Shown here one piece after another: positions 4,624-23,043 of a DNA stretch of 24,000 bases. The DNA lies in contig NZ_AP027368.1 in assembly GCF_030296015.1 (NCBI RefSeq), forward strand, positions 3,496,839-3,520,838, in the 5' to 3' direction. Position numbers and translations under genes: made by a program. The stretch is from Ferrimonas sp. YFM. Lineage in GTDB: Bacteria; Pseudomonadota; Gammaproteobacteria; Enterobacterales; Shewanellaceae. The number at the start of each line of letters is the position of its first letter. Positions within the stretch are counted from its first letter, which is position 1. The notes under the pieces are model-generated. The model did not search any database, was not told the DNA's origin, and worked only from the letters and a program-made list of their open reading frames with translations.

Positions 4624-5523
4624 TCAGAGGCGCACCAAGGGCAGCAATGTGACGCCCGCTTCAGACAGCTGGCCATACAAGGCCTCCACACGCTCTGAGG
4701 TGGTTTCGGCCAGACTCTGGCCCCGTTCGCCGACGCCGTGGTGCTGATAGCGATTGAGACGGAGCGCCGGGGGACTGGGCAGCGAGTGGTAGAGCTCGAT
4801 GAGTGCCGTCAGTTCGTCGTCACCGTCGTTGACGCCCTCCACCACCAGCCAGCGAAGCTCCGCCAGCTTGTTCGCCTGGGCCAGCAATTTAGCGCTGGCC
4901 AGCACCTGCTGGTTATCCCGGCCGGTCAGGCGCTTGTGGATGGCCGAATCCATCCCCTTGATGTCCAGCATCATCCCATCCACCCGCTCCAGCAAGGCCG
5001 GCCAGTGGCCCGCCGCCAGCAGGCCGTTGGAGTCGATCAACCGCCCCAGGTGGGCAGTGCGGCGATCCTGGTCCAGGGCATCACACAGCCTGACCAGAAA
5101 CTGACGCTGCAAGGTGGCTTCGCCGCCGGAGAAGGTGACGCCATCGAGCAGAGGAGCATGACGGGCAATGCGCTCCACCAGAGAGGCCACATCGAAGCTC
5201 ACCGCATTGGGGTTGCCACTTCTGGGGCAGTGAGGCAGGCAGAGATCGCAGCTTTGACACTGGCTTTCGTCACACAATTTGCGCTTACGCTGGCCAGAGC
5301 CCCGCTCAAGGGACAGGGCACCGTTGGGGCAGTGTTCGATGCAGTCGCCGCAATGGTTGCACTGGCCTATGGTCTGGGGGTTGTGACAGCCGGGGCAGTC
5401 CATGTTGCACCCCTGGAAGAACACCACCAGGCGGCTGCCCGGACCATCCACACAGCTGAAGGGCAGGATGCGGCTCACCATCCCGGGCCGGGGAGCCACT
5501 GGGGTCAGGGCTCTTATTTCCAC
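4624..5523 (-). CDS. yjjW: Glycyl-radical enzyme activating protein, YjjW family (radical SAM)
   Basis: FSCVDGPGSRLVVFFQGCNMDCPGCHNP contains the CX3CX2C radical-SAM cluster motif. Two further ferredoxin-like Cys clusters follow (CNHCGDCIEHCP, CQSCDLCLPHCP). The ATG overlaps the 3' end of yjjI by 10 nt. An alternative internal start at 5481 (MVSRILPF) cannot be excluded. Confidence 0.8.
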   Translation of the reverse strand: MEIRALTPVAPRPGMVSRILPFSCVDGPGSRLVVFFQGCNMDCPGCHNPQTIGQCNHCGDCIEHCPNGALSLERGSGQRKRKLCDESQCQSCDLCLPHCPRSGNPNAVSFDVASLVERIARHAPLLDGVTFSGGEATLQRQFLVRLCDALDQDRRTAHLGRLIDSNGLLAAGHWPALLERVDGMMLDIKGMDSAIHKRLTGRDNQQVLASAKLLAQANKLAELRWLVVEGVNDGDDELTALIELYHSLPSPPALRLNRYQHHGVGERGQSLAETTSERVEALYGQLSEAGVTLLPLVRL

Positions 5524-9208: not shown

Positions 9209-9967
9209 TCAGCTCAGGCGACGAATCTGCAGGTTGGCGTCCAGACACTTCTTGCAGGAGAGTTTGCTCTTGATGCCCCGGGCGATGTACTCGGAGACCA
9301 TGCTGTCCAGAGTTTCGTACTGCTCCCGGGTAGCGGGCTGTGTCCAGTTGAAGGCGTTGACTATGGTCAGTATCCCCTCCATCTGAGCCTGACTCCGCTG
9401 GGCTTCGACCAGCTTCTCAATCAGCTTGCTCTCGTAGGCGGTGGACTGACCGTAGAGCTGGAAGTAGATCATCTGTGCCAGCAGGAGCAGGCGTTCATCG
9501 CTCTCCTCCAGTACCCCGGAATCCCTGGCCTCGACGGCGAGCATGTGGATCAGATCGAAGAACCGATTGCACCTGAGCTTGAACCTGTCCACCTTTTCGC
9601 AACTGGCCAGCGGCCACACCTTGGAGTTCACCGACACCGCCCGAAGAGACATAAAACTGCTGCTCTTCATCACCGTCTGGTAGGTGGTGACTATGGGCAC
9701 CAGGAAACGCTCCTGAGGGGTAAGCTCAGGGTGAGTATCGAGAATATCCGGAATGTTGTTGGAGGTGGCACTGCGCAAAAACAGACACAGCAACACATCC
9801 TCCTTACTTTCGAAGAACTTGTAGACCGAACCCGTTGAGGTATTGGCCACCTTGGCAATATCGGAGAACTTGAAAGAAATAATTCCCTGTTCTTCAATTA
9901 GTTGCTCAGCTGCATCCAACAATATCTGGCATTTGTTTTCCGCCTGGGGGGTGTTGGGGCATTGCAT
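9209..9967 (-). CDS. TetR/AcrR-family transcriptional regulator
   Basis: The N-terminal HTH reads ILLDAAEQLIEEQGIISFKFSDIAKVANTSTGSVYKFFESKEDVL. It is transcribed divergently from module 1. Confidence 0.85.
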   Translation of the reverse strand: MQCPNTPQAENKCQILLDAAEQLIEEQGIISFKFSDIAKVANTSTGSVYKFFESKEDVLLCLFLRSATSNNIPDILDTHPELTPQERFLVPIVTTYQTVMKSSSFMSLRAVSVNSKVWPLASCEKVDRFKLRCNRFFDLIHMLAVEARDSGVLEESDERLLLLAQMIYFQLYGQSTAYESKLIEKLVEAQRSQAQMEGILTIVNAFNWTQPATREQYETLDSMVSEYIARGIKSKLSCKKCLDANLQIRRLS

Positions 9968-10326
9968 ATTTTATTTCTTCTACAGACCCATTTTCGCAAA
10001 CGTTACCTTTTCAACAGAATTTTTGTTGTGACTGTCTTCAACAATCAAGCTAACCCAGGTCAGTTTTTGAATTTAGCTCATTAATATTTGCCTATCTCGG
10101 TCACAGAGAAAATTTGTTCAGGATCTGGATCATGAAACAAATTTTCAGCCCAAAACCGATGTGAGTCAGCTCTCAATTTCCCGCCTTCTCCCTCTTCATA
10201 GTGAACCTCAATCGCAAGCAGGCTCCAGTATCCTCGCTGACTTCCATTTTTAAGAGGCAAGGAAAATTCGGTGCCCCCTTGCTGGCGCGATTCAACCCGT
10301 TCGCCATTCCAACAGGTGAGAAAACT

Positions 10327-11850
10327 ATGACAACCGACATCAATAAACGCAGCACGCTGAAAATGCTGGGTGCCATGACCCTGACCGGCGCCGCTGCCCC
10401 ATTCGCTGCACAGGCCGGCTCCTGTGACCACTCCAAGGTCCAGTGGGACGACACCTATGAGGTGATCTGCGTAGGGTCCGGCTTTACCGGGCTGGCCGCC
10501 GCCATCGAAGCCAAACGCAAGGGCGCCCGCTCGGTACTGGTGATTGAGAAGATGCCCTATTGCGGCGGCAATGGCGTCATCAACGCAGGTCAGGCCTGCT
10601 TCGCCGACACTCCGCTGCAGAAAAAGCTGGGCATCAAGGACTCCGCAGAGCTGATGGTCAATGACCAGCTCAAGGCAGGGCGCGGCATCGCCAGCCGCGA
10701 GCTGCTGGAGCACAACGCCAAGCTGGGGCCTTACGCCTTCCAGATGACCAAGGAGTGCGGTGCCGTTTACCTAGATTTCTGCCAACAGCCCGGCGGTCAC
10801 TCAGCCCCTCGCAGCCACCAGGTGGTGGAACGCTCAGGAGCTGGCATCATCCGTCCCATGCTGGCTGAATGTGAGCGTCAGGGCATCACGGTGCTGACCC
10901 GCACCAAGTTTGACGATCTGCTGTTCGATGACGCAGGCCATGTCATCGGTGTCCAGGTCACCAAGGGGCACTACCATGACCGCCCTGCCCTGGGTAAGCC
11001 TGCCAAGCTGCGTGCCGCTAAGGGCGTGGTGATGGCTACCGGCGGCTTTACTCAGAACATCCGTCTGCGCATGGCTCAGGACCCCACCCTGACCGAAGAG
11101 GTGGTCTCCACCAATGCCCCCGGCGCCACCGGCGATGGCCTGGTCGCCATGATGAAGGCGGGGGCCAACCCGGTTCACCTGGCCCACATTCAGTCCGGTC
11201 CCTGGGCCTCCCCGGATGAAGGCGGTTTTGGCTACGCGCCCAATTACGCCATCTTCAACTTCCCCCACTCCATCGCCATCGACCTGATGACCGGCCGCCG
11301 CTTTATGAGCGAACTGGCAGACCGAAAAACCCGGGCCGATGCCGAGCTGCAGCGCCGTGATGCCAAAGGCAACCCTCTGCCAGCGATTCTGCTGACCTCC
11401 AAGAAGCACTCCAGCCAAAACCAGCACAGCCTGGATAACGTGCTGGAAGCCAAGGTGGGGTGGGAATTTGACTCGCTGGAAGCCGTTGCCAAGCACTTCG
11501 ACATCCCTCTGGAGCCTCTTAAGGCCCAGGTGAAGGAGTGGAACGGCTATGTGTCTGCAGGCAAGGACACCCAGTTCGGCAAGCCGATGAACCTGACCAA
11601 GGGTAAGGAGATGTCAGCCCCCTACACCGTTATTCGTCTCTGGCCCAAGGTGCATTACTGCATGGGCGGCGTTCAGATCAACACCAAAGCCGAGGTGATC
11701 GCCGCGGCCTCCGGCGAGCCCATTCCCGGTCTGTACGCCGGCGGCGAAGTTGCCGGTGGCGTGCACGGCGTCAGCCGCCTGGGTGGCTGCTCCATTCCCG
11801 ACTGCCTGGCCATGGGTATCACCGCGGCCCGCTCCATCATGACTGCGTGA
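10327..11850 (+). CDS. Periplasmic FAD-dependent enoate (fumarate/urocanate/acrylate-type) reductase flavoprotein, flavocytochrome c flavin subunit (module 1)
   Basis: The dinucleotide fold is YEVICVGSGFTGLAAA. The family motifs VHYCMGGVQINTKAEV and GLYAGGEVAGGVHGVSRLGGCS correspond to HHTMGG and GANRLGG of Shewanella Fcc3 (from memory). I place the start at ATG 10327 (AGGTGAG upstream), giving MTTDINKRSTLKMLGAMTLTGAAAPFAAQA, a Tat-like KR signal. Confidence 0.8.
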   Translation: MTTDINKRSTLKMLGAMTLTGAAAPFAAQAGSCDHSKVQWDDTYEVICVGSGFTGLAAAIEAKRKGARSVLVIEKMPYCGGNGVINAGQACFADTPLQKKLGIKDSAELMVNDQLKAGRGIASRELLEHNAKLGPYAFQMTKECGAVYLDFCQQPGGHSAPRSHQVVERSGAGIIRPMLAECERQGITVLTRTKFDDLLFDDAGHVIGVQVTKGHYHDRPALGKPAKLRAAKGVVMATGGFTQNIRLRMAQDPTLTEEVVSTNAPGATGDGLVAMMKAGANPVHLAHIQSGPWASPDEGGFGYAPNYAIFNFPHSIAIDLMTGRRFMSELADRKTRADAELQRRDAKGNPLPAILLTSKKHSSQNQHSLDNVLEAKVGWEFDSLEAVAKHFDIPLEPLKAQVKEWNGYVSAGKDTQFGKPMNLTKGKEMSAPYTVIRLWPKVHYCMGGVQINTKAEVIAAASGEPIPGLYAGGEVAGGVHGVSRLGGCSIPDCLAMGITAARSIMTA

Positions 11851-11858
11851 GGTACTCC

Positions 11859-12233
11859 ATGAAACTGAAAACGACTCTGGCCATCGCCTTGGCCTTCTCC
11901 ATGCTGGGCGGTGCCCAGGCGGCGACCCTGACCAAGATGGGCGCCAAACAGGGCCGCAGCTTCCATGAATTCAACTACGAGGACGGCTGCAAGAGCTGCC
12001 ACGATCAGGGGATGCGCAAGCCTCCCTCAGATCAGAGCTGTCAGCAGTGCCATGACTTACCAGAACTGATTGAGGCCACTGCCAACAAGGAGAAGCAGTG
12101 GAAAAACCCTCACAACAACATGCACTACGGTGACAAGGTCCCTTGTATCGAGTGCCACGGCGAGCACAAATCCAAAAAGCCCTTGTGCAGTAACTGCCAT
12201 AACTTTGATTTCAAAAACTTTAATGAAAACTAA
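11859..12233 (+). CDS. Small periplasmic tetraheme cytochrome c (module 1)
   Basis: There are four CXXCH motifs (CKSCH, CQQCH, CIECH, CSNCH) in about 100 mature residues. The signal peptide is MKLKTTLAIALAFSMLGGAQA. GAGG lies 5 nt upstream, and the start is 8 nt after the flavoprotein stop. Confidence 0.9.
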   Translation: MKLKTTLAIALAFSMLGGAQAATLTKMGAKQGRSFHEFNYEDGCKSCHDQGMRKPPSDQSCQQCHDLPELIEATANKEKQWKNPHNNMHYGDKVPCIECHGEHKSKKPLCSNCHNFDFKNFNEN

Positions 12234-12245
12234 GTTATAACTTCT

Positions 12246-12278
12246 AAAAAGGCTCCGCAACGGAGCCTTTTTTGTTTT
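12246..12278 (+). terminator. Rho-independent terminator after the module-1 cytochrome gene
   Basis: The sequence is AAAAAGGCTCCG-CAA-CGGAGCCTTTTTTGTTTT (stem 12251-12257 / 12261-12267). Confidence 0.85.
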
Positions 12279-12595
12279 CACCTTTCCTAATAAATGCGCT
12301 CACACCAGTTTGATTGACCAAAATTGAATCAGCATCAAGAAATAAACTAAGCATCATTAAACCCCCAGTTTCTGCTCAAAGCCCACCCCGCACAAAAGCG
12401 CAATAAAACACCACGAAGATCACGAACTTTCAGACTGCCCGGCGAACTTATTCACCCGCAAATCTCACTTTTGAGTCCTTTACGAGGCGGATCATGAAAC
12501 TTTGTTTCTACCAAAAACCAACGTGATCCACTGCGCATTTTATTTACCCCTGCGGCTGAATAATGTCCCTGTCCAAAACAAACACCAAGGAAAAG

Positions 12596-13312
12596 ATGAT
12601 GAAAAAAACTATTGCAGTTGCCGTTTCCTCTATATTTTTGGCTACTCCATTTATTGCCAATGCCAAGGACCATTCTCCTATTCCAACTCCTCTGGTCAGC
12701 TCCACACACGCCCCTGTTTGGGAAATTCCAGAGGAGTGTCGCGATCCTCTGGCTGAGAAATACATCGCCGGTCTGGAGTCCGGTAAATACACCCTGGCCA
12801 ACATCCCTGCCGATGACACCATCGCCAAAGACAAGCGCCACTGGCTGACCTTCGATGAGAGCGGCAAGAACGTGGTTGAGTGTAAAGATGGCGACATCAA
12901 GAACTCTCCCTCCAACTACTGCTGGAAAGAGCTGTCTGACGCCCCCTCCGTCATGGGTATTGTGTCCATGGGCAAAACCGACCACGCCCCTCACTACCAC
13001 CCTCAGGGCGAGTGCTACTACATCGCCAGCGGTAAGACCGAGACCCTGGCTCAGAACCAGATGCAGTCCATCGAGAAGGGGCAGTACTTCTGGATCAACG
13101 ACTACGCCATCCACAACATCCCCAACCTGAACAGCGAAAAGCTGACCATCTTCTACTGGTACCCAGGTGACGCCAACTGGGGCAGCTTCAAGTACCGCTG
13201 GATCGATGACGTGAAGAACCACCAGCCTGCGGAAGCCGCGTTCCACAAGGTGGATGAAATTCGTAAAGCGGCCTGGGGCTACGGCCCATACGGCACCAAC
13301 GAAGAGAAGTAA
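12596..13312 (+). CDS. Periplasmic cupin-domain protein with a cupin DMSP-lyase-like metal/catalytic motif (module 1)
   Basis: The signal peptide is MMKKTIAVAVSSIFLATPFIANA|KD. Cupin motif 1 is GKTDHAPHYHPQGECYYIASG and motif 2 ends in ..YAIHN. In ORF-track numbering the pattern is H144-x-H146-x3-E150-x-Y152 and H184 (E+34). AAGGAAAAG precedes the ATGATG, so the start is 12596 or 12599. Confidence 0.75.
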   Translation: MMKKTIAVAVSSIFLATPFIANAKDHSPIPTPLVSSTHAPVWEIPEECRDPLAEKYIAGLESGKYTLANIPADDTIAKDKRHWLTFDESGKNVVECKDGDIKNSPSNYCWKELSDAPSVMGIVSMGKTDHAPHYHPQGECYYIASGKTETLAQNQMQSIEKGQYFWINDYAIHNIPNLNSEKLTIFYWYPGDANWGSFKYRWIDDVKNHQPAEAAFHKVDEIRKAAWGYGPYGTNEEK

Positions 13313-13324
13313 AACAGGGGTTTC

Positions 13325-14458
13325 ATGACAATGTTTAAACGTACTCAAACAGCACTGGTGATCACCGCTCTGTTGGCCGGTGCCTCCAGCATGGCCGTTC
13401 AGGCCGAAGATGGCATCGACTTCGGTGGCGCAGTGCGCGTTAACTACGGCCTGAAGATGTACAGCGACGCCTCCAAGGATAAGGGCGGCGACCTGAACTT
13501 CGACATTCTGGCGCTGAAGTTTAACGGCAAGAAGGGCGACTGGGGTCTGGCGGCAGAGTACCGCTTCAACTCCTCCACCAACTTCATCAAGTACGGCTAT
13601 GCCTACTATGATATGGCGCCGGAGTGGCAGCTGCAGTTTGGTGTGACCAAGGTACCCTTCGGCAACCCAGGCTTTATCTCCAACAGCTGGTGGTTTGGCC
13701 TGCCTTACTACCTGGGCTTTGAAGATGACTACGACGTAGGCGCCAAGGCCGTCTACAACAGTGGCGCCTGGCAGACCGACATCGCCTTCTTCAAAAACGG
13801 CGAGTACAGCTCCAGCAACAACAAGGCTTACACCCCTGACCTGTTCAGCGGCATGGTCAACGGCACCCAGTACAACAACGAAGAGATCAACCAAATTAAC
13901 CTTCGCCAGGTCTACACCTACAATGAGGGTGACCTGACGGTTAAGGCGGGTGGCTCCGCTGAGTTTGGCCAGATCTACAACAGCAAGACCACAGACACCG
14001 GTGACCGCTACGGTGTGGCTGTCCACCTGGACGCCACCTACCAGGGATGGAATCTGCAGCTGCAAGCGATGCAGTACGAGTTCGATGCAGAGAACCCTGC
14101 CGGCATGGATGGCAACAAGATCGGTGTCGCCGGTGCCGGATGGCAGTGGGAAGTGGCCTCCAAGGGGCAGATCTACTCCCTGAACATTGCCAAGACCATC
14201 CCCACCAGCTTCGGCAGCATCAAGGTCTACAACGACTTTGGCATGCTGACACCGGACGTGGATGACGCCAGCTTTGATGACAGCTTCCAGAACGTGACCG
14301 GTATGGCCATCGCCGCGGGTCCCATCTACATCATGGCGGACTTCATCCAGGGCAAGAACATGACCTTCTCCACCGAGTTGGACGATCATGTTGGCCTGCC
14401 CCAGGCTGGCGACAGCTGGGATCAACGCATCAACATCAACCTGGGTTACTACTTCTAA
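13325..14458 (+). CDS. Predicted outer-membrane beta-barrel porin (module 1 paralogue)
   Basis: The signal peptide is MTMFKRTQTALVITALLAGASSMAVQA|ED. The sequence is rich in alternating aromatic, Gly, Asn and Asp residues and ends in NINLGYYF, as is typical of OM barrels. It starts 13 nt after the cupin stop. It is a paralogue of 20155-21279. Confidence 0.7.
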   Translation: MTMFKRTQTALVITALLAGASSMAVQAEDGIDFGGAVRVNYGLKMYSDASKDKGGDLNFDILALKFNGKKGDWGLAAEYRFNSSTNFIKYGYAYYDMAPEWQLQFGVTKVPFGNPGFISNSWWFGLPYYLGFEDDYDVGAKAVYNSGAWQTDIAFFKNGEYSSSNNKAYTPDLFSGMVNGTQYNNEEINQINLRQVYTYNEGDLTVKAGGSAEFGQIYNSKTTDTGDRYGVAVHLDATYQGWNLQLQAMQYEFDAENPAGMDGNKIGVAGAGWQWEVASKGQIYSLNIAKTIPTSFGSIKVYNDFGMLTPDVDDASFDDSFQNVTGMAIAAGPIYIMADFIQGKNMTFSTELDDHVGLPQAGDSWDQRININLGYYF

Positions 14459-14527
14459 CCCCTTGGGCACCGGGGTGACTGACACCACCCCGGTCCTATT
14501 TATCTATGTGTTTTCATTCCTGACCTT

Positions 14528-14553
14528 GCCGGCTGACATCAGCCGGCTTTTTT
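14528..14553 (+). terminator. Rho-independent terminator after porin 1
   Basis: The sequence is GCCGGCTG-ACAT-CAGCCGGC followed by TTTTTTAT. The identical sequence recurs after porin 2. Confidence 0.8.
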
Positions 14554-14561
14554 ATGGGCAC

Positions 14562-14590
14562 AAAAAACCCCGCCGAGGCGGGGATTTGGC
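14562..14590 (-). terminator. Terminator hairpin for the minus-strand LysR gene (bidirectional A/T flanks)
   Basis: The plus strand reads AAAAAACCCCGCCGAGGCGGGGATTT. On the minus strand the GC stem is followed by TTTTTTG, and it lies 5 nt beyond the LysR stop. Confidence 0.7.
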
Positions 14591-14594
14591 CAAC

Positions 14595-15434
14595 TCAGTT
14601 AACTTTGGAATTGGCGATCAGCACCTTCACCACCTCCTCATGCTGAGGAGAGATATCGTGACGAACATAGAAGTTGATGGGGCCTTCCACATCGCCCTTG
14701 GTGGGTCCCTGACAGACCTCCAGCTCAGGGTTGCTCTCAATCATCTTCTGCGGGAGCAAGCCAATGCCGATCCCTTTCTGGATCAATTCTTGTGAAAAGT
14801 CCGGCGTATCTATGGTCATCACCCGATAAAAGTCATCGGTCTGATTCAGTGCCAAAGTCAAATCATGCCAGTGATCCCAGACTCTGGAGTGCGTGATGGT
14901 GGGAACCGGTGACGAAAATGTCACCCGCTTAGATTTTGCCCAGTTAAAATAGAGCACATCCAAAATTTGCCGCTTTCGATACTTAGGCTGATTATCAAAC
15001 AGTCCTTCGGTGATCACTATGTCCGCCTCGCCCTTCTCCATCAAGTGCTTCACCAAGGAAAGCTCCCCGGTCTTAATGTGCAGAAATGAGGAATTAAGCA
15101 TCTCAGGGTCAATGATTGGCGCCACGTATTTCAAATAGAGTCTGGGCTGGGTGACAATGGTCAATGGAGACTTATCGACAAGCTGCTGAGATAAGTTTAG
15201 AAAGTTTTTATAGTTATCAATCACATCGATAGCGACCGGATACAAGATCCGACCATTCTCTGACAGGGTCACCTTGCCTTGTCGTCGCTGAAACAGCTCA
15301 ACCCCAAGATCGGACTCCAGTTTTTTAACAAGATTACTGATATTTGGCTGAGATGTATCCAGTAACTCCGCAGCCTTAGAAAAGCTGTCAAATTCAGCCG
15401 AATAATAAAATGCCAATATTGTTTTTATATTCAT
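14595..15434 (-). CDS. LysR-family transcriptional regulator
   Basis: The N-terminal wHTH reads MNIKTILAFYYSAEFDSFSKAAELLDTSQPNISNLVKKLESDLGVELFQR. I place the start at ATG 15434; the ORF-track start at 15443 is a GTG. The gene is divergent from the module-2 flavoprotein and noticeably AT-richer than its neighbours. Confidence 0.85.
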   Translation of the reverse strand: MNIKTILAFYYSAEFDSFSKAAELLDTSQPNISNLVKKLESDLGVELFQRRQGKVTLSENGRILYPVAIDVIDNYKNFLNLSQQLVDKSPLTIVTQPRLYLKYVAPIIDPEMLNSSFLHIKTGELSLVKHLMEKGEADIVITEGLFDNQPKYRKRQILDVLYFNWAKSKRVTFSSPVPTITHSRVWDHWHDLTLALNQTDDFYRVMTIDTPDFSQELIQKGIGIGLLPQKMIESNPELEVCQGPTKGDVEGPINFYVRHDISPQHEEVVKVLIANSKVN

Positions 15435-15667
15435 CGCTCTCACTATCTCCCCGGCAATAGTTTTCTAAAGCAGTGTAAACCCTTCTCTCCTATGAATGAT
15501 CTTGAATTTCCGATTCTGTGATAACGATTTAATCTGATGGCGATTAAGGAACTGCGGTTTCAGCCCTGTTATTGACGCGCCAACCCTCCCTAAGCGTTTC
15601 CTGATAAATTTGCCAGACGCTTTTATCACAAAACATCTGATAAAATACATTTTCTGTTTGGCCCAAT

Positions 15668-15763
15668 TTTTGTGACCTGAGTCGGCGTGGGTATAGCAAT
15701 TTATTATGTCGAGCTATCCCGGAGCTTGTTCACGTTCGGTTTCAGCATTTTTTTCTATGATTT
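15668..15763 (+). promoter_or_regulatory. Conserved 96-nt upstream cassette, copy A (before module-2 flavoprotein gene)
   Basis: An ungapped alignment to 17959-18054 gives 73/96 identities (hand count). Shared elements:
- TTTTGTGAC at the 5' end
- dyad ATAGC-N15-GCTAT (15693-15717)
- a 26-nt core AGCTATCCCGGAGCTT[G/C]TTCACGTTC, matching at 25/26
- CTATGATTT, a possible -10, at the 3' end. Confidence 0.6.
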
Positions 15764-15830
15764 TCTTACCCCCTATTTAACTCCAATACCTGCTACAGCT
15801 CAGGTATTTGGGTCCACCTAAGGAACTGTA

Positions 15831-17336
15831 ATGAAACGTAGAGATCTACTGAAAGCCGCAGCATTAATACCGGCTGCCGCTGCAGTAACCGCTGCTCCGA
15901 CACAGGCATCTCCTATGACCAGAAAGTTTGATGAAGAATACGACCTTGTGATCGTAGGCAGTGGTTTTGCGGGATTGGCTGCGGCTTACTCTGCAAATAA
16001 AAATGGATTAAACAAGATCCTTGTTATAGAAAAGATGGGTGCCTTCGGAGGCAACTCGGCAATCTGTGGTGGCATTGCCTGTATGCCTGATACCCCGCTG
16101 CAGAAAAAACACGGCATCGAAGACTCACCGGAGCTTCTGGTGAAAGATATGCTCAAGGTCGGCCGTGGATTCAACCACCCCGAACTCTGTGAAGCGATGG
16201 CGAAAGGCGCCAGCACCGCCTATGAGATGTTGATGGAGTGTGGTGTTGAGTTCAAAGACAAGCTGATTCGTCTGGGTGGACACAGCGCTCCCCGAGGCCA
16301 CATCCCAACCAATGCCTCCGGAGGCGGCATTGTCGTCCCCATGCACAAATACCTGCTGAACAAAGGGGTTAAATTCCAGAATCGCACCAATGTCTCCGCC
16401 ATCATTCGCGACGATGCAAACAACGTTTGCGGTGTAGAGGTTCAAACAGATTTCGACCCCAATACAGGGAGCGCCAAAGGAGAGATGACCTACGGATCCC
16501 GCCACGGCATTGTGATCGCGACAGGTGGCTGGGGCAACGACAAGAAATTCGTTAAGACCACCATGCCTGCCTACGCAAACTTGAAGGCGAGCGCCCAGCC
16601 AGGGGCCACGGCAGAGATGATTAAGTCACTGCTGTCATTAGGGTCACTGCCCATCATGCTGGACATGTACCAGTTGGGTCCTTGGGGTTCCCCGGATGAG
16701 CGTCCGGCAGGCCCCGGCTCCTTCTTCGCAGATTACGCCTTCAGTGAGGGGATTGCCGTGGATCCCATGACGGGTAAGCGCTTTGTCAACGAGCTGTCAT
16801 CTCGTCGCACCCGCTCCGAAGCTGAGCTGGAGGTAATGAAGAAAGGCACCAAAGCAAAACCAAACTACCCCTTTACCTTCTGTGGTGAGGAGACCACAAA
16901 GCGCTCGGAAGGCTTCCGCGCTGCCTACCGAGACGGAGCAGTGCGAAAGTCAGACTCGGTCGCAGAGCTGGCTAAGCTGCATGGTGTCGATGAGACACAG
17001 TTGGCCCAAACCATCGCAGAGTGGAACGAGATCGTAGAGGGCAAGCCGGATCCCTTTAATAAACCCCTGGACGTAAGAACACAACTCAAGCCGCCCTTCT
17101 ACTCATTCAGGTTGTCACCTGTACTGCACTACTGCATGGGCGGAGTCGCCATTACGGCAGACGCCCAGGTCGTGGATGTGACCACCTGTGAACCGATCAA
17201 TGGGTTGTTTGCCGCGGGTGAGATTACCGGAGGCGTTCACGGAATGGATCGCTTGGGAGGTTGCTCCTCCGTAGACGGTCTGGTCTTTGGTCAAATTGCC
17301 GGCAGGGCCGCTGCAAAATATAAGGCGAATGTGTAA
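15831..17336 (+). CDS. Periplasmic FAD-dependent enoate reductase flavoprotein, flavocytochrome c flavin subunit (module 2)
   Basis: The twin-arginine signal is MKRRDLLKAAALIPAAAAVTAAPTQA. The dinucleotide fold is YDLVIVGSGFAGLAAA. The motifs LHYCMGGVAI and GEITGGVHGMDRLGGCS are shared with 10327-11850, of which it is a paralogue. Confidence 0.85.
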   Translation: MKRRDLLKAAALIPAAAAVTAAPTQASPMTRKFDEEYDLVIVGSGFAGLAAAYSANKNGLNKILVIEKMGAFGGNSAICGGIACMPDTPLQKKHGIEDSPELLVKDMLKVGRGFNHPELCEAMAKGASTAYEMLMECGVEFKDKLIRLGGHSAPRGHIPTNASGGGIVVPMHKYLLNKGVKFQNRTNVSAIIRDDANNVCGVEVQTDFDPNTGSAKGEMTYGSRHGIVIATGGWGNDKKFVKTTMPAYANLKASAQPGATAEMIKSLLSLGSLPIMLDMYQLGPWGSPDERPAGPGSFFADYAFSEGIAVDPMTGKRFVNELSSRRTRSEAELEVMKKGTKAKPNYPFTFCGEETTKRSEGFRAAYRDGAVRKSDSVAELAKLHGVDETQLAQTIAEWNEIVEGKPDPFNKPLDVRTQLKPPFYSFRLSPVLHYCMGGVAITADAQVVDVTTCEPINGLFAAGEITGGVHGMDRLGGCSSVDGLVFGQIAGRAAAKYKANV

Positions 17337-17686
17337 TGAAAAGCTCCATAGTCGTTGCCGCTATCACTGTACTGCTGTCATGGGGAGCCTTAGCCGCGCC
17401 CAAGACGATGAAACCCCACCACGCCGACGCCATGGGCGGCAATATGACTTGTCGCACTTGTCACACCGCCAAAGGTAAATTCCAGCGTCCCAGCGCAGAA
17501 ACCTGCATCGAGTGCCATGGCGGCATGAGCGAGATCCCTATTCAAGCCAACCGCTGGGATAAAGATCCACACGGCTCTCACCACTATGAGGATCTGCTGG
17601 AGTGCACCCTGTGCCACTCAGAGCATCAATCATCGAGAGCAATCTGCTCAGACTGCCATGTGGTCGAATTCTCTAATCTAAAATAG
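17336..17686 (+). CDS. Small periplasmic tetraheme cytochrome c (module 2)
   Basis: There are four CXXCH motifs (CRTCH, CIECH, CTLCH, CSDCH) and a signal peptide MKSSIVVAAITVLLSWGALAA. The start overlaps the flavoprotein stop (TAATG). Confidence 0.9.
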   Translation: MKSSIVVAAITVLLSWGALAAPKTMKPHHADAMGGNMTCRTCHTAKGKFQRPSAETCIECHGGMSEIPIQANRWDKDPHGSHHYEDLLECTLCHSEHQSSRAICSDCHVVEFSNLK

Positions 17687-17721
17687 AGCTGTTTGTAATA
17701 AATCAGAATCGAAATTAATAG

Positions 17722-17800
17722 TGGCTGGAAAGTTGCCTTAGGGTTATTAAATTAACATGGCAACCACCAGCCATTTTCATTTCCAGCCATCTTTTCATTT
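17722..17800 (+). terminator. Long imperfect hairpin followed by a T-rich tandem direct repeat; probable terminator or attenuator after the module-2 cytochrome gene
   Basis: TGGCTGG-AAA-GTTGCC (17722-17737) pairs with GGCAAC-CA-CCAGCCA (17759-17773) around a 21-nt AT-rich loop. It is followed by CCAGCCATTTTCATTT (17767-17782) and CCAGCCATCTTTTCATTT (17783-17800). Either CCAGCCA could pair with the 5' arm. Confidence 0.4.
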
Positions 17801-17958
17801 AGCCACCCCATACCGAACCCTGCCTCAGCAAGCACTAATTAGACTGACTTAATCGACTGTCAAGCCCTTTCTAAACTGATCACTGCGACTCTCTAAAAAA
17901 ATAAAACCTGACATCACAAAAAGGCCATTCAAAAAAACATATTTTTCACCAAGCCTTG

Positions 17959-18054
17959 TTTTGTGACGTAAATCCAGCTCGGCATAGCAAATTCTTATAC
18001 CCAGCTATCCCGGAGCTTCTTCACGTTCATTCTTAATATTTTTCCCTATGATTT
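17959..18054 (+). promoter_or_regulatory. Conserved 96-nt upstream cassette, copy B (before the HAL-like gene)
   Basis: This is collinear with 15668-15763, with the dyad ATAGC-N15-GCTAT at 17984-18008 and the core at 18003-18028. The genes downstream of the two copies are unrelated, so the similarity is not a relic of CDS duplication. Confidence 0.6.
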
Positions 18055-18094
18055 ATCCACACCTAAACGATACAAAGAACCAATGGAGTTCCTG

Positions 18095-19762
18095 ATGAAA
18101 CACGTATTATCAACGAGCATTTGTGCTCTTTCTCTGGCGGTATCCTTCGGCATCCAAGCCGAAACCTTTCAACTGACTGGCCAGGATCTGACTGTCGACC
18201 AACTCTGGGAAGCCGCGGCCAAAGGCAATGACGTTACCCTGAGCCGTGCCGCCTGGAAACGAGTGGAAGACTCCTATCAAACCACCATCGACGCCGCGAA
18301 GAAGGGCATCGAAATCTACGGCCTGACCACCAACTTTGGCGACCTCAAAGATCAGGAAGTAGTCAAAGGCGACATCGAAGCCGAGCCTAACCGCACTAAG
18401 TCCATTGAGTTCAACAAGCGTCAGTTGCGTATTCAGGCCGCCGCAATGGAACCCTACTTCGAAGATCGCATCGTTAAGATGGGTATGATCATCCGTCTGA
18501 ACCAGATGGCAGCCGGCCTGACCGGTATGACCACCGAAACCGCCAAGTACTATCAGACCTTCATCAACAACGATGTCATCCCCATGGTACCTGGTCGCGG
18601 TTCCCCTGGCGTGAACGACCTGAACTGGGCCACTCACATAGGCCTGGCGATGATCGGTGAGTGGGATGTTCACTACAAGGGCAAGAAAGTGCCTGCCACC
18701 AAGGCGATGGCCGACCTGGGCATCAAGCCTCTGGAACCCTTCGGCCTGGATGGCATCTCCATCCTGTCCAACAGCAACATCTCCATGGCCATCACCGTGG
18801 AAGCGATCCAGCAATCCCAGCACCTGCTGGATATCTCTCCCTACATCGTGGCTACCTCGCTGGAGTGTCTGAACGGTAACGTCTCTCCCTTCCTGTGGCA
18901 CTCCATCGAAGGCAAAGGGATGCCCCAGGGGCACGTGGCTGCAGAGCCGATCCTTAAAGCTCTAGAGGGCTCCTTCCTGTGGCAGCCCAATGAAGAGCGC
19001 TACCTGCAGGATCCGCTGACCTTCCGCTCCTCCCACTGGACGCTGGCCGCCGCTCACGAAGAGCTGGACCAGCTGAGAGATCTGGTTGAGAAACAGCTTA
19101 ACCACACCTCTGATAACCCCATGGTGACTATCGAAGGCCGCACCGACATGTGGTACTCCGACACCCCAGTGGTGAAGTCCCTGATGGTCGATCCCAAGAA
19201 GGGCAGCTACGTTAACTCCAACTCCGCCTTCGATAACACTCAAATCGCGATTCAGGTTGAGTCTCTGGCCACAGCCATGGCTCACGTGATTCACAACTCC
19301 GGTTGGCGCAGCCTGCAGGTGGGCATGGACCATCGTACTCACCTGCCCAAGTACCTGGTGGCCAAGTCCAACAAGGGGGGTGACGGTTTCGCCAACATCA
19401 TCCAGGCGATCTCCGGCTACTACGCCGAAGCCGCAGGCTTGACCAACAACGTCACCCTGTACGGTCTGCCGACCTCCAACATCATTGAGGAGACCTACAA
19501 CAACGTGAACGTCACCGCCGAGCGTCTGAAGCAGATGAACGACATCGCCTATGAGGTGTTCTCCTACGAGATTCTGCACATGACCCAAGGTGCCCAGATG
19601 CGTCGCGACGAGCAGGGTTACAAGCTGGGTAAAGGCACCAGTGCTCTGCTGAAGGAATACCGCAAAGTCGTGCCCTTTGTAGACAAGGATCGCCCATTCA
19701 CCAAAGACGTAAACAACGGCGTCAAGTTCCTCAAGCAGCTTGATGTAACTACCCTGCTGTAA
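18095..19762 (+). CDS. Signal-peptide-bearing aromatic-amino-acid-lyase (HAL/PAL) family protein lacking the MIO Ala-Ser-Gly triad (module 2)
   Basis: Family motifs occur along the whole length: IYGLTTNFG (cf. YGINTGFG), LDGISILSNSN (cf. KEGLALLNGT), LQDPLTFRS (cf. QDPYSLRC), TSDNPMV (cf. SDNPLV) and LPTSNIIEE (cf. LPTSANQED). Where HAL has GSVGASGDLAPLAH, this protein has GSPGVNDLNWATH. I place the start at ATG 18095 (GGAG 6 nt upstream), giving MKHVLSTSICALSLAVSFGIQA|ETF. Confidence 0.8.
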   Translation: MKHVLSTSICALSLAVSFGIQAETFQLTGQDLTVDQLWEAAAKGNDVTLSRAAWKRVEDSYQTTIDAAKKGIEIYGLTTNFGDLKDQEVVKGDIEAEPNRTKSIEFNKRQLRIQAAAMEPYFEDRIVKMGMIIRLNQMAAGLTGMTTETAKYYQTFINNDVIPMVPGRGSPGVNDLNWATHIGLAMIGEWDVHYKGKKVPATKAMADLGIKPLEPFGLDGISILSNSNISMAITVEAIQQSQHLLDISPYIVATSLECLNGNVSPFLWHSIEGKGMPQGHVAAEPILKALEGSFLWQPNEERYLQDPLTFRSSHWTLAAAHEELDQLRDLVEKQLNHTSDNPMVTIEGRTDMWYSDTPVVKSLMVDPKKGSYVNSNSAFDNTQIAIQVESLATAMAHVIHNSGWRSLQVGMDHRTHLPKYLVAKSNKGGDGFANIIQAISGYYAEAAGLTNNVTLYGLPTSNIIEETYNNVNVTAERLKQMNDIAYEVFSYEILHMTQGAQMRRDEQGYKLGKGTSALLKEYRKVVPFVDKDRPFTKDVNNGVKFLKQLDVTTLL

Positions 19763-19770
19763 CACCCATC

Positions 19771-19809
19771 AACGGCGAGCAGATGACCTCTCTCTCTGCT
19801 CGCCGTTTT
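19771..19809 (+). terminator. Rho-independent terminator after the HAL-like gene
   Basis: A perfect 12-bp stem AACGGCGAGCAG / CTGCTCGCCGTT (19771-19782 / 19796-19807) is followed by TTCCTGT. The T-tract is weak. Confidence 0.65.
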
Positions 19810-20154
19810 CCTGTATTAATCGACACTAAGAAAAATGATCAGGAGTTTATTCGGGCCAGATAAATTCAAACCCTGAACGACTCCACGCGTCGGAAGCAGA
19901 CGAAAATTTAAACCTGCGAAAATATCAGAACATGTACTAACCATTGATTCCTTATTCGGCCTCATTGTTTAAGGCATCTAAAAAACACAGTGGTTAATAG
20001 AGCATTATTAGTCACCCGCATTTAAGCAACGCCCCAATTGCCAGAAGCGTTTAATAACTCAGCACGCAATATCACCAAACATTGCCTCTGCGATTTTTTA
20101 AAGCTTCTCCATACAAACAAGAGTTAAATCATCTAGCATAATATAGGTGTTTTC

Positions 20155-21279
20155 ATGACAACGTTGAATAAAATCACAGCTGCGCTCTTTGCACTTTCTA
20201 CTCTGACTTGCGCTGGCTCTTATGCCAATGACGCCGAAGATGGCATTGCCATCGGCGGCACCGTCAGAGCCAACTACCAATACAAAGAGTACAGCGACCA
20301 ATCCAAAGACAAAGCTGGCGACCTTAAATTCGATGTCTTAGCCATTAAATTCAATGGCTCCCTCAATGGTATCGGCCTGGCTTCCGAGTATCGCTTCTAC
20401 GAAGGCTATCATATGCTGCTGAATGCCTATGCATATGGTGAAATCGGCGAACAGATACAGGCCACCATTGGACTCACCAAGGTCCCCTTTGGCAATCCCG
20501 GCTACATCTCCAATAGCTTCTGGTTTGGTCTGCCCTACTATCTGGGCTTTGAAGACGACCACGATATGGGGGCCACCCTTCAATTCAGCCATGGCAACTG
20601 GACCACCGATCTGGGCGCCTTTAAGAACGCCGAATACAGCCCTTCAAACAGCCAGCGTTACTCCACCGACATCTACGAGGGCACCATCAACGGCACTCAA
20701 TACAATAACGAGGAGACCAACCAGCTCAACCTGCGTGAAACTTACCTGATAGAGCATGCCTCAGGTCAATCCATTGTGGGGGCATCGGTAGAGTGGGGAC
20801 AGATCTACAACACAGAGACCGGTGACAATGGCGACCGCTATGCCCTGGCTCTGCACCTGGACAGTTCCATCAATGACTGGAATCTGCAGCTTCAGGCCAT
20901 TCAGTATGAGTACGATGCCGCCGATGCCAGTAACCCCAACAAGATCGCCCTGTCAGCCTTTGACTGGCAGTATGAAGTGGCCTCCAAGGGCCAGATCTAC
21001 TCCCTGAATATTGCCAAGACCATCCCAACCAGTTTTGGCAGCATCAAGGTCTACAACGACTTTGGCATGATGACCCCCGATGTGGATGACAGCAGTTACG
21101 ACGACAGCCTGATGAATGTCCTTGGTATGGGCATCTCTGCGGGCCCGACCTACACCTATGTCGACCTGATTTCCGGCAAAAACATGTACGCCGCAGGCAT
21201 CAATGACCATATTGGCCTGCCTCAGGCCGATGATGGCTGGGATCACCGCATCAACATCAACCTGGGGTACTACTTTTAA
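20155..21279 (+). CDS. Predicted outer-membrane beta-barrel porin (module 2 paralogue)
   Basis: The signal peptide is MTTLNKITAALFALSTLTCAGSYA|ND and the C-terminus is NINLGYYF. It aligns end to end with 13325-14458. Confidence 0.7.
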   Translation: MTTLNKITAALFALSTLTCAGSYANDAEDGIAIGGTVRANYQYKEYSDQSKDKAGDLKFDVLAIKFNGSLNGIGLASEYRFYEGYHMLLNAYAYGEIGEQIQATIGLTKVPFGNPGYISNSFWFGLPYYLGFEDDHDMGATLQFSHGNWTTDLGAFKNAEYSPSNSQRYSTDIYEGTINGTQYNNEETNQLNLRETYLIEHASGQSIVGASVEWGQIYNTETGDNGDRYALALHLDSSINDWNLQLQAIQYEYDAADASNPNKIALSAFDWQYEVASKGQIYSLNIAKTIPTSFGSIKVYNDFGMMTPDVDDSSYDDSLMNVLGMGISAGPTYTYVDLISGKNMYAAGINDHIGLPQADDGWDHRININLGYYF

Positions 21280-21339
21280 TCAGCTTTAAGCTTAGGCAGT
21301 TGTAAAAGACGAGTTCATTTCATTATCGACCGCGACCTT

Positions 21340-21367
21340 GCCGGCTGACATCAGCCGGCTTTTTTTG
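21340..21367 (+). terminator. Rho-independent terminator after porin 2
   Basis: The sequence is GCCGGCTG-ACAT-CAGCCGGC followed by TTTTTTTG. It is identical to the hairpin at 14528-14547. Confidence 0.8.
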
Positions 21368-21374
21368 TGTCCAT

Positions 21375-21403
21375 TAAAAAACCCCGCCGAGGCGGGGTTT
21401 TGT
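21375..21403 (-). terminator. Terminator hairpin for the minus-strand MCP gene (bidirectional)
   Basis: The plus strand reads AAAAAACCCCGCCGAGGCGGGGTTTTG. It lies just beyond the MCP stop at 21406, and the same 22-mer occurs at 14562-14583. Confidence 0.7.
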
Positions 21404-21405
21404 TG

Positions 21406-23043
21406 TCAGCTCAGTCGGTATCGACCAATCAGGTCCTGCAGTTCGTCGGCCTGAGAGGCGATCTGCTGGCCGACCTGCTGAGCCTCGGAAGCGTTGCGCT
21501 CCACCGATTCGCCCACCTCCTTGACCCGCAGCACATTCTGGCTAATCTCTTCACTGACACGGCTCTGCTCTTCGGCGGCCGCAGCAATCTCCATATTCAT
21601 CTGGCTCAGTTGTCCCACCTCTTCGGTCACCAGGCTGAGCATCTCGTCCACTTCGGTGGCCTGACTGGCACACACGTCGGCAAACTGCTGGCCGTGCTCA
21701 ATGGAGGTAACCGCTTCCTGGCTCTCCTTCTGCAGACGCTCGATCATGGTCTGAATCTGCTGAGTCGACTCCTGGGTGCGGGATGCCAGAGAGCGCACCT
21801 CATCCGCCACCACGGCAAAGCCGCGTCCCTGCTCTCCTGCCCTGGCCGCCTCTATGGCCGCGTTCAGTGCCAGCAGGTTGGTCTGTTCGGCGATGGTACG
21901 AATTACATCCAGAATGGCTCCGATCTCCTGGCTCTCATGCTCGAGGCGCTGCATCACCTGCCCCGAGTGGCTGACCGCCCCCTGAAGCTCGATGATGTTC
22001 TGCTTGGTCTCGTTGAGATTGCGTTTGCTCTCTCCAAGGCGGCCGTTGGTCTCAGCCACATTGCTGGCGGCGACCTGGGCACTGGAACTGACCTGAGAGA
22101 TGGACGCCACCATCTCGGTCATGGCACTGGCCATCTGGTCAGTTTGTGAATTCTGATCATGGATGTCGCTGGCGGTTTCCCCCATCTCCCGCTGCAGGGT
22201 GTGGGACTGGCTGGTCAGCAGAGCAGACACCTGGTGCAACTGATTGAGTATCGACACCTGTTGTTGCTGAAGCTCCTTGGCATCACCGGCCAGTTGGCCA
22301 AGCTCATCCCGCTGCTCCAGACTGAGCCGAGCGGCGAAGTTACCCGATGCCAGCTCACGCAGAAATCCACCGACGCTGCGCATGGGGCGAATGATGAAGC
22401 TGTTGCTCACCATGGCACCCACCACCAGAGCCAGGGCAAAGGCCAGGGCAAGGGCCACCATGGCCAGCATCAGTTGCTGATCCGCATGCAACTGGTGCTC
22501 CTCTACCGCCCGCTCCTGGGCCTGCTCCATCGCCTCCACCAGGGCCTCGAGACTCTGTGCCGGTGCTCTGTCTATGCCTCTGACCAGGGTGTCCGTGCCA
22601 GCGGCATCATAGTCGTTGGCCAGCTGATAGGCCCGACCTTCACGGTATTTTTCACCCAACACCCTGTGCGCCTGGATAAAGGCGTCCAGCTTGCTGGCCA
22701 ACCCGGCATCCAGCTCCCTGAGCATTGTCAGAGTCGCCTCGGCATGATGTTGCACCTTGGCTTCCGCTTTAAGGTACTTACCCCAGTACTTCTCCCTGTC
22801 CTTCTCCTGATAGGTGCGAACCAGGACGTTCTTCCACTCCTGCACCTGAGCTTTGAATTCCACTTCCAGGGTGAGCACCTGCTCCCTGGCCACCACGTCC
22901 TGCTGCAATACCTGCTGGTAATAGCCCACCACAGTAACCTGGCTATAGAGGGCAAAACCTGCCCCAAGGAGCAAAAGCAGCATGCCTACCAGATTGGCAA
23001 ACATCAGTTTCTTGCTAATGCTGAGATGACGGAGAAGCTTCAT
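21406..23043 (-). CDS. Methyl-accepting chemotaxis protein (N-terminal TM + four-helix-bundle-like sensor, HAMP, MCP signalling domain)
   Basis: The highly conserved signalling hairpin is [35 protein letters not shown]. There are two hydrophobic segments (residues about 15-35 and about 195-215). Confidence 0.9.

Follow-up and report, generated by a model that had tools for sequence, protein, structure and literature searches.

What does a bacterium gain from two neighbouring copies of the same soluble respiratory reductase genes, each copy joined to a different exported enzyme and to an outer-membrane barrel of its own? The question is raised by a 24,000-nucleotide stretch of the Ferrimonas sp. 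YFM genome (contig NZ_AP027368.1, positions 3,496,839 to 3,520,838; hereafter the window, whose own numbering is used below), in which two such modules lie in tandem. We consider it likely that they are two independently regulated periplasmic systems, in each of which a precursor would be cleaved and the released enoate respired. In the proposed mechanism, an onium-type zwitterion would cross the outer membrane, probably through the porin of the module itself, and the exported lyase would strip the onium leaving group to yield an alpha,beta-unsaturated carboxylate. The double bond would then be reduced by the soluble flavin adenine dinucleotide (FAD) subunit, to which a dedicated tetrahaem cytochrome c would pass electrons from a quinol-oxidising cytochrome encoded elsewhere. 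We infer the activities and substrates, the direction of flux through the porins and the respiratory role of both modules from sequence and from the closest characterised homologues.

Module 1 is preceded by a divergent TetR-family regulator gene (9209-9967, complementary strand; Pfam TetR_N match) and contains four genes on the forward strand: FAD1 (10327-11850), the flavoprotein subunit of a split flavocytochrome c and a predicted 2-enoate reductase of the ArdA type; CYT1 (11859-12233), an ArdB-like tetrahaem cytochrome c subunit; a candidate periplasmic lyase, an exported cupin of 237 residues (12599-13312 in the NCBI model); and OMP1 (13325-14458), an outer-membrane barrel whose family is distantly akin to porin O/P. 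Between the modules lies a LysR-family regulator gene (14595-15443, complementary strand; HTH_1 and LysR_substrate matches), divergent from module 2. The latter comprises, again on the forward strand, FAD2 (15831-17336), a flavoprotein of the SO_3301 type and thus a predicted N(pi)-methylurocanate-type reductase; CYT2 (17336-17686), a second tetrahaem subunit; an exported lyase of the histidine ammonia-lyase (HAL) family (18095-19762), assigned below to the SO_3299 type; and OMP2 (20155-21279), the second barrel copy.

For FAD1, the cupin and the module 2 lyase, NCBI holds a protein of 100% identity. Family profiles agree with these assignments. FAD1 and FAD2 match the flavocytochrome c model TIGR01813 with 500 and 504 bits, both cytochromes match Cytochrom_c3_2 and carry four CxxCH motifs, and the lyase of module 2 scores 315 bits against Lyase_aromatic (PF00221). 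The cupin falls slightly under the Pfam cut-off for Cupin_2, and OMP1 and OMP2 have no match in Pfam or NCBIfam. The repeated parts are paralogous by BLASTP, with similarities far above chance: 38% identity over 467 residues for the flavoproteins (E = 6e-103), 39% for the cytochromes (E = 2e-18) and 59% over 377 residues for the barrels (E = 9e-155). The cupin and the HAL-like lyase show no BLASTP similarity to each other. Export signals, judged by eye from the N-termini and without a predictor, are present in all eight module proteins: a twin-arginine translocation (Tat) signal in FAD2 (KRRDLLK), its KR variant in FAD1 (NKRSTLK), and Sec-type n-h-c regions with AxA-like ends in the other six. 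No gene of the NapC/CymA type was found by a family scan of the window proteins. An earlier, sequence-only reading of this DNA had described the same eight exported products at these coordinates (with the cupin start at 12596), the same paralogy around two dissimilar third enzymes, the TetR gene beside module 1 and the LysR gene between the modules, and the lack of a CymA/NapC-type quinol dehydrogenase in the window; each of these descriptions is borne out. Its central idea, that an exported lyase supplies a 2-enoate to a split flavocytochrome c acting as terminal reductase, is supported by the closest characterised homologues and by co-conservation, and its guess of onium precursors (DMSP (dimethylsulfoniopropionate), hercynine, ergothioneine derivatives) pointed in the right direction.

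Module 2 has the closest characterised relatives. Among PDB entries, its lyase is closest to an ergothionase, that of Treponema denticola (6s7j, E = 2e-61). Its N-terminus, MKHVLSTSICALSLAVSFGIQA, reads by eye as a signal peptide, and its gene is clustered with the flavocytochrome c genes. In true ammonia-lyases an Ala-Ser-Gly triad forms the 4-methylideneimidazole-5-one (MIO) cofactor; the window lyase is devoid of this triad, with SPG in its place (RGSPGVNDL), and keeps the catalytic Tyr (IYGLT). According to published work, the residue in the column of T. denticola Lys384 is Lys in ergothionase, Asn in the histidine betaine lyase Swoo_3913 and Gln (Gln434) in SO_3299. Gln occupies this column in the window lyase and in 66 of 66 homologues of at least 50% identity, which come from Shewanella abyssi, S. 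atlantica, S. colwelliana and S. schlegeliana as well as from the gut genera Parasutterella and Turicimonas. The ergothionase clade is about 35-37% identical to the window lyase, and the clades at 36% or less mostly have Lys; among the latter is a protein from S. sediminis with a neighbour that has been listed as thiourocanate reductase.

Work on S. oneidensis describes SO_3057 as an ergothionase and SO_3299 as a lyase of N(pi)-methyl-histidine-betaine, each gene sharing an operon with those of a split flavocytochrome c, and states that ergothioneine supports anaerobic growth of this bacterium and that Ferrimonas is among the genera with such lyase-flavocytochrome clusters (10.64898/2026.04.22.720169). 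According to a preprint from the same group, S. woodyi couples a histidine-betaine trimethylammonia-lyase of the periplasm to urocanate reductase. Compared with a machine-read and error-laden copy of SO_3301, FAD2 reaches at least 56% identity, versus 34% to SO_3058. Moreover, FAD2 retains, at the same spacing, the Trp of GPW and the Asp of FFADYA, which correspond to Trp284 and Asp300 of SO_3301, residues assigned to stacking and to N(tau) binding of N(pi)-methylurocanate (10.64898/2026.04.22.720169). The position of UrdA Glu177 is hydrophobic in both proteins (Ile in FAD2, Leu in SO_3301), and the start of CYT2 overlaps the FAD2 stop codon.

Judged by the lyase Gln and the match between FAD2 and SO_3301, module 2 is a further member of the SO_3299-SO_3301 kind, known from publications of 2025-26. 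Both consist of a periplasmic MIO-less lyase with Gln, a reductase with the Trp/Asp pair and a separate tetrahaem subunit; module 2 differs in its genus and in having a porin and a LysR gene, neither of which is mentioned in 10.64898/2026.04.22.720169. In module 2 (LysR, FAD2, CYT2, lyase and OMP2), an N-methylated histidine betaine would thus be split into trimethylamine and a substituted urocanate, the latter to be reduced by FAD2/CYT2. This assignment is tempered by the source of the SO_3301 and SO_3058 sequences, which were taken from a machine-read alignment in supplementary Fig. S4, the mis-read rows of Fig. S5 being left unused. In cluster look-ups among the lyase homologues, SO_3299 was not found; the only names returned were those of Parasutterella, Turicimonas, Burkholderiaceae and further Shewanella species. 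The same logic of a lyase with a periplasmic reductase is seen in SO_3056-SO_3058 (ergothionase with a predicted thiourocanate reductase) and in Swoo_3912/3913 (histidine betaine lyase with UrdA), from which module 2 differs in that its lyase has no equivalent of the Lys384 of the ergothionase clade, and in that UrdA has a flavin mononucleotide-binding domain instead of a cytochrome.

Other loci of the module 2 type have a LysR gene in the equivalent position (L078, L079 and L081), and in L078 and L079 the terminal gene belongs to the same barrel family. In L079, a metagenome contig, the lyase is 77% identical to that of the window, the flavoprotein 39% to FAD2 and 38% to SO_3058, and the porin 44%, which looks like an exchange of the reductase partner under a near-constant lyase. 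A locus of the Parasutterella excrementihominis type (L080) has a TetR gene, a flavoprotein 58% identical to FAD2, a lyase at 55% and then a Porin_4 gene, with an uncalled tetrahaem cytochrome open reading frame at about 7620-7990; its porin, of an unrelated family, appears to have been recruited independently.

Genomes were scanned for relatives of the barrel. The query was a five-member alignment of OMP1, OMP2 and three sequences from Paraferrimonas haliotis and S. canadensis loci. It returned 153 relatives, of which 72 loci holding 86 barrel genes were kept, almost all from Ferrimonas, Shewanella and Paraferrimonas; in typing the neighbourhoods, six Ferrimonas loci were read by hand. The flavocytochrome pair adjoins 73 of the 86 barrel copies, and for 71 of these a cupin, a HAL-type lyase or DddY is present as well. 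By neighbourhood, 52 copies stand with flavoprotein, cytochrome and cupin, 13 with a Sigma-54 activator, an ergothionase-type lyase and an SO_3058-like reductase, 6 in the order AcuI-LysR-ArdA (85%)-ArdB-DddY, 2 with flavoprotein and cytochrome only, 9 in clusters of the cai/fix type (acyl-CoA dehydrogenase, BCCT transporter, electron transfer flavoprotein (ETF) alpha/beta, ETF-QO, MFS) and 4 elsewhere. The cupin is thus the commonest lyase partner of the chassis (52/86 porin copies).

Every cupin homologue with a readable context, in Paraferrimonas, Shewanella, Ferrimonas and the betaproteobacterium Saezia, adjoins a flavoprotein-cytochrome pair, and nearly all cupin-type modules of other genomes have a divergent TetR gene upstream of the reductase. 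The cupins fall into three clades, with 82%, 41-52% and 31-34% identity to the window cupin, and these pair one-to-one with three reductase clades, each with its own active-site loops. All three cupin modules, together with an ergothionase module, are present in F. kyonanensis, several Shewanella also have DddY-ArdAB, and a single genome may hold up to four or five such cassettes. The clade pairing and the multi-module genomes therefore argue for a coupling of lyase and reductase with a different substrate in each module. The recurrence of the chassis with other exported enzymes and the co-conservation of lyase and reductase genes, both of which the sequence-only reading had left to be checked, hold strongly in these gene-neighbourhood scans, the partners being three cupin clades, ergothionase-type lyases and DddY. 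Tandem cupin modules occur in many Shewanella (L017-L019, L024, L025, L031, L032, L037, L039, L040, L043 and others), where an ArdA-like reductase with a clade-3 cupin is followed by a divergent reductase with a clade-2 cupin, and where in the second module an additional DcaP-like barrel separates porin and cupin. Tandem modules being recurrent, the arrangement is not peculiar to the Ferrimonas sp. YFM window.

The barrel itself is accepted as an outer-membrane porin because of transitive homology, its signal peptide and the C-terminal GYYF of OMP1. No Pfam model matched OMP1, OMP2 or 48 of 50 family members, and profiles built from 5 or 50 members gave only noise against solved structures. 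A full HMMER search gathered 505 representative clusters (50% identity), 179 of them with E < 1e-30; of ten distant members that were sampled, six match Porin_O_P or Porin_4, and three of these reach the Pfam cut-off. Against Porin_O_P (PF07396), the L079 barrel scores 30.1 bits, and P0387, P0430 and P0500 reach at least the cut-off of 20.9 bits. Like OprO/OprP-type porins of that family, OMP1 and OMP2 have a signal peptide and an aromatic residue at the C-terminus. Since almost all neighbourhoods handle DMSP, ergothioneine, histidine betaines or carnitine-type compounds, the comparison suggests that the family may form a channel selective for onium zwitterions. The cai/fix-like Shewanella clusters (L047, L065, L067 and L070-L075) have the porin at their end and no flavocytochrome, which hints at a porin serving betaine/carnitine-type compounds in general.

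Several observations count against so specific a role. The part given to the porin within the modules is drawn from gene context, some module-2-type loci are without the barrel (L081, in S. schlegeliana), and the AlphaFold2 model of OMP1, computed from a two-sequence alignment of OMP1 and OMP2, has a pLDDT (predicted local distance difference test) score of 30 and is unusable. The barrels could then be general diffusion porins, placed beside the modules by a lineage-specific accident of Shewanella and Ferrimonas genomes. The near restriction of the 72 kept loci to Ferrimonas, Shewanella and Paraferrimonas would fit such an accident, as would the barrel-free modules of S. schlegeliana and Saezia (L001). 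Yet 82 of the 86 copies lie in onium-compound clusters of four enzyme types, a genome holds several copies, each belonging to a module of its own, the Parasutterella module has independently acquired in the same place a porin from another family, and the type-B cupin modules carry a second, DcaP-like barrel. On this balance, an accidental adjacency seems rather doubtful, and a porin dedicated to the modules is preferred.

The reductase of module 1 resembles a different characterised enzyme. Bertsova et al. (10.1101/2024.02.11.579808) have experimentally defined ArdAB of S. woodyi, encoded with DddY in Swoo_0275-0277, as a periplasmic acrylate reductase; in ArdA, the His and Thr that bind the C1-carboxylate of fumarate have given way to Gly and Tyr, and the enzyme is inactive on other 2-enoates. 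Gly at the Fcc3 His365 position, with loss of the residues that bind the second carboxylate, is known from publications to mark enoate reductases of the non-fumarate kind. S. woodyi ArdA (P0280), whose UniRef cluster is named acrylate reductase flavoprotein subunit, shares 60% identity with FAD1. The substrate loop of FAD1, IQSGPWASPDEGGFGYAPNYAIFNFPHSIAI, equals its ArdA counterpart, ...GYVSNYSIYNFPHSIAI, at 27 of 31 positions. Gly stands at the position of the fumarate-binding His365 of Fcc3, and the GYAPNY loop of FAD1 corresponds to GYVSNY of ArdA, with Gly and Tyr in place of the fumarate-binding His and Thr. The residues for the C4-carboxylate and proton donation are kept, namely the Arg of ADRKTRAD, the His of HYCMGG and the Arg of SRLGG. 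The layout is also that of ArdAB, with a flavoprotein bearing a Tat signal (KR, by eye) and a separate Sec-exported tetrahaem cytochrome; CYT1 starts 8 nucleotides past FAD1, immediately downstream as in ArdAB, and is followed by a hairpin and T-run at 12246-12272.

FAD1/CYT1 may thus form acrylate reductase or an enzyme for a close analogue. Two stretches speak against an exact equivalence, NAGQACF in FAD1 versus NGGLFAA in ArdA, and RSHQVVERS versus RTYQTTVSC; both resemble reductases tied to another cupin clade, and because of them the compound handled may not be plain acrylate. Module 1 (TetR, FAD1, CYT1, cupin and OMP1) would therefore be read as an ArdAB-type reductase of acrylate-like compounds in which the cupin replaces DddY and would release acrylate or a close analogue, by beta-elimination, from DMSP or from a beta-onium propionate related to it. 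Like ArdAB with DddY, it sets a split flavocytochrome c (Tat flavoprotein, Sec tetrahaem cytochrome) beside the gene of an exported cupin-type lyase, and other Shewanella DddY-type clusters end with the porin family of module 1. The two systems differ in the lyase, DddY having about 414 residues and the window cupin 237 residues of unrelated sequence, and in their accessory genes, LysR and AcuI in the former, TetR and no AcuI in the latter.

The assignment of the cupin depends on fold and motif. Its database relatives number only 21, all annotated merely as cupin-domain proteins. The best PDB sequence match is the DMSP lyase DddK (E = 1e-4, 25 bits). An AlphaFold2 model with pLDDT 86 superimposes on DddK (5tfz) with E = 5e-9 and a root mean square deviation of 1.7 A over about 105 columns at 25% identity, covering the core only; in a Foldseek search with this model, ranks 1-6 were all DddK, and DddQ was found at rank 31. 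The motif H129-x-H-x-x-x-E-C-Y-Y (H129-Y-H-P-Q-G-E-C-Y-Y), together with the His of IHNIP (IH172N), is invariant in 21 homologues and across the three clades. HxHxxxE-x-Y(Y) plus a second His is the published defining signature of the cupin DMSP-lyase-like group, and an HxHxxxExYY string can also be read in Shewanella DddY sequences. The Pelagibacter enzyme DddK (5tfz, 6a53) shares the core fold and the HxHxxxExY and His motifs; it has about 130 residues and is cytoplasmic, whereas the window cupin is exported and has about 85 additional N-terminal residues and a C-terminal helix. According to a 2023 paper, DddY was the sole periplasmic cupin DMSP lyase known. The cupin gene is separated from OMP1 by 12 nucleotides. 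The cupin is most likely a periplasmic metal-dependent lyase of the DMSP-lyase-like kind.

Cupins span very diverse functions, and the enzyme could instead be an isomerase, a hydratase, an oxygenase or a binding protein, module 1 then living on free environmental acrylate. What weighs against a lyase is that the cupin has no match to the DMSP_lyase model PF16867 at E <= 0.01 nor to any NCBIfam model, and no profile-profile similarity to DddY in hhalign; its likeness to DddK is limited to the core of about 105 residues at 25% identity, and generic cupins such as TM1459 come close behind DddK in the fold search. Tawfik's group, in addition, found several 'Ddd' cupins with other primary functions. 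The presence of all three cupins in F. kyonanensis, and of DddY-ArdAB as well in some Shewanella, argues against the cupins being simple duplicates of a DMSP lyase. Nevertheless, the cupin stands where DddY or HAL-type lyases stand in equivalent modules, it has the complete metal and Tyr signature, its clades co-vary strictly with those of the reductase, and an oxygenase is implausible next to an anaerobic reductase. A function other than generating the substrate is thus unlikely, and we retain the lyase assignment. As a separate candidate, a shortened DddY was rejected, hhalign giving a probability of 0.6% for the cupin family against Shewanella DddY. One F. kyonanensis locus (L082) holds a clade-3 cupin module in which an extra DUF3299 gene (154 residues) separates the cupin from a more divergent porin (44% to OMP1). 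A literature search found no functional study of S. oneidensis so_1413/1414, which may be a cupin-type module.

If lyases and reductases are coupled as proposed, the pathways could still serve detoxification or scavenging, the reductases clearing toxic enoates of the acrylate type and the lyases releasing dimethyl sulfide (DMS), trimethylamine or carbon. Acrylate is indeed toxic, the detoxification gene AcuI accompanies DddY-type clusters, and DMSP stimulated growth of S. woodyi by only 20-25%. A detoxifying origin was also proposed by the authors who studied Mrd/Mcc of Geobacter sulfurreducens AM-1 (PMC4427408), a periplasmic reductase of acrylate and methacrylate made up of a Tat flavoprotein and a tetrahaem cytochrome; this system, likened to the modules by description only, has no lyase or porin described with it. 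Against such a role stand the induction of ArdAB and of the S. oneidensis ergothionase under anaerobic conditions only, the anaerobic growth and respiration on ergothioneine, which are comparable to those on fumarate, the architecture of a respiratory reductase given by the periplasmic site and the dedicated tetrahaem cytochrome, and the lack of an AcuI gene in the family scan of the window. Detoxification is for these reasons a distinctly improbable purpose, and respiration on the released enoate remains the preferred one. That both reductases are ordinary periplasmic fumarate reductases with unrelated neighbours, as might be implied by Fcc3, the fumarate reductases of Shewanella, being closest to them in sequence among solved structures, is scarcely credible and was rejected on active-site residues, since FAD1 and FAD2 both have Gly at Fcc3 His365 and no Thr377/Glu378/Arg381 arrangement for a second carboxylate, and ArdA, 60% identical to FAD1, is inactive on other 2-enoates.

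Both modules carry duplicated upstream elements. In module 1, a motif of about 53 nucleotides (GGATCATGAAAC...AAAACC..GTGA), a candidate operator/promoter, lies upstream of FAD1 (10127-10179, forward strand) and recurs upstream of the cupin gene (12489-12540, forward strand); a motif of the GGATCATGAAAC type is kept upstream of the F. kyonanensis cupin gene (L006:9154). On the FAD1 side, the copy of the motif coincides in part with a candidate TetR operator, the inverted repeat TTCAGGATC-TG-GATCATGAA. In module 2, a repeat of 96 nucleotides stands upstream of FAD2 (15668-15763, forward strand) and, at 76% identity, upstream of the lyase gene (17959-18054, forward strand). It contains a LysR-box-like ATA-N9-TAT dyad and a CRP-like TGTGA half-site, and is probably a shared promoter/operator. 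The duplication of upstream elements, with one copy before the reductase operon and another before the lyase gene, points to co-regulation of lyase and reductase in each module, and we infer that the adjacent TetR and LysR proteins act on these elements. Consensus sigma-70 promoter matches in the window showed no excess over shuffles, and an Rfam scan of the window returned no RNA family.

Module 2 is interpreted as an insertion because direct repeats flank it, its G+C content differs and F. kyonanensis is without it. The repeats are two copies of a bidirectional terminator block of about 70 nucleotides (14522-14588 and 21334-21402, no strand assigned), sharing an exact stretch of 32 nucleotides and one of 27 nucleotides at 96%. 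The 6.8 kb so enclosed has 51% G+C versus 60% in the flank, and the syntenic F. kyonanensis locus (L006) contains topoisomerase, TetR, FAD, CYT, cupin and OMP genes and an opposite-strand chemoreceptor gene, with no module 2. The insertion is recent and perhaps arose by recombination, either at the 3' end of the porin gene or at the terminator.

A few further features of the window deserve mention. Immediately after the modules, and in the same place as in F. kyonanensis, is a gene for a methyl-accepting chemotaxis protein of 545 residues (21406-23043, complementary strand), which may sense the same compounds as the modules; such genes are also found downstream of the porin in the Shewanella loci L047, L067, L070 and L081. 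Another pair of anaerobic metabolism, a YjjI-like glycyl-radical enzyme (515 residues, 658 bits) and its radical-SAM activase, is encoded at 4624-7061 on the complementary strand, directly upstream of the topoisomerase gene. An antisense open reading frame of 678 residues (12452-14488, complementary strand) runs across the cupin and OMP1 genes; this and other long antisense frames in the window (e.g. 18110-18934 and 18962-19765) are taken as composition artefacts.

The sequence-only reading had considered the modular exchange of the lyase on a conserved chassis with a dedicated porin not to be a described system. For the coupling of lyase and flavocytochrome this was overstated, as it is already described in preprints of 2024-2026. 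The claim holds for the porin and the small cupin, neither of which is mentioned in the three preprints on these pathways, and the novelty lies in a small cupin of the periplasm as lyase partner and in the co-conserved porin family without annotation, a family also carried by ergothionase-type loci of Ferrimonas and Shewanella. We propose, tentatively and as a possibility we would not yet favour, that the porin family and the three cupin clades mark a general modular 'onium-compound respiration cassette' of marine Shewanellaceae/Ferrimonadaceae, made of an outer-membrane channel selective for zwitterionic sulfonium or ammonium compounds, a periplasmic lyase and a matched enoate reductase, in which the cupins would be new lyase families.

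If this is so, the cupins would act on marine metabolites beyond DMSP, ergothioneine and hercynine, and would add to the terminal electron acceptors, and to the biological sources of DMS, dimethyl sulfoxide or trimethylamine, that are known so far. The strict pairing of cupin and reductase clades predicts three distinct precursor/enoate pairs, and the window offers, through its cupin, a concrete route to new substrates. Respiration on enoates derived from abundant osmolytes and antioxidants would tie anaerobic energy metabolism to the marine cycles of sulfur and methylamines, and the modules of gut Sutterellaceae could provide a similar tie to trimethylamine and to products of the imidazole-propionate type. 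Finally, the co-conserved porin, a candidate betaine/DMSP channel, would be the first component of the outer membrane to be linked with these pathways in the literature searched.

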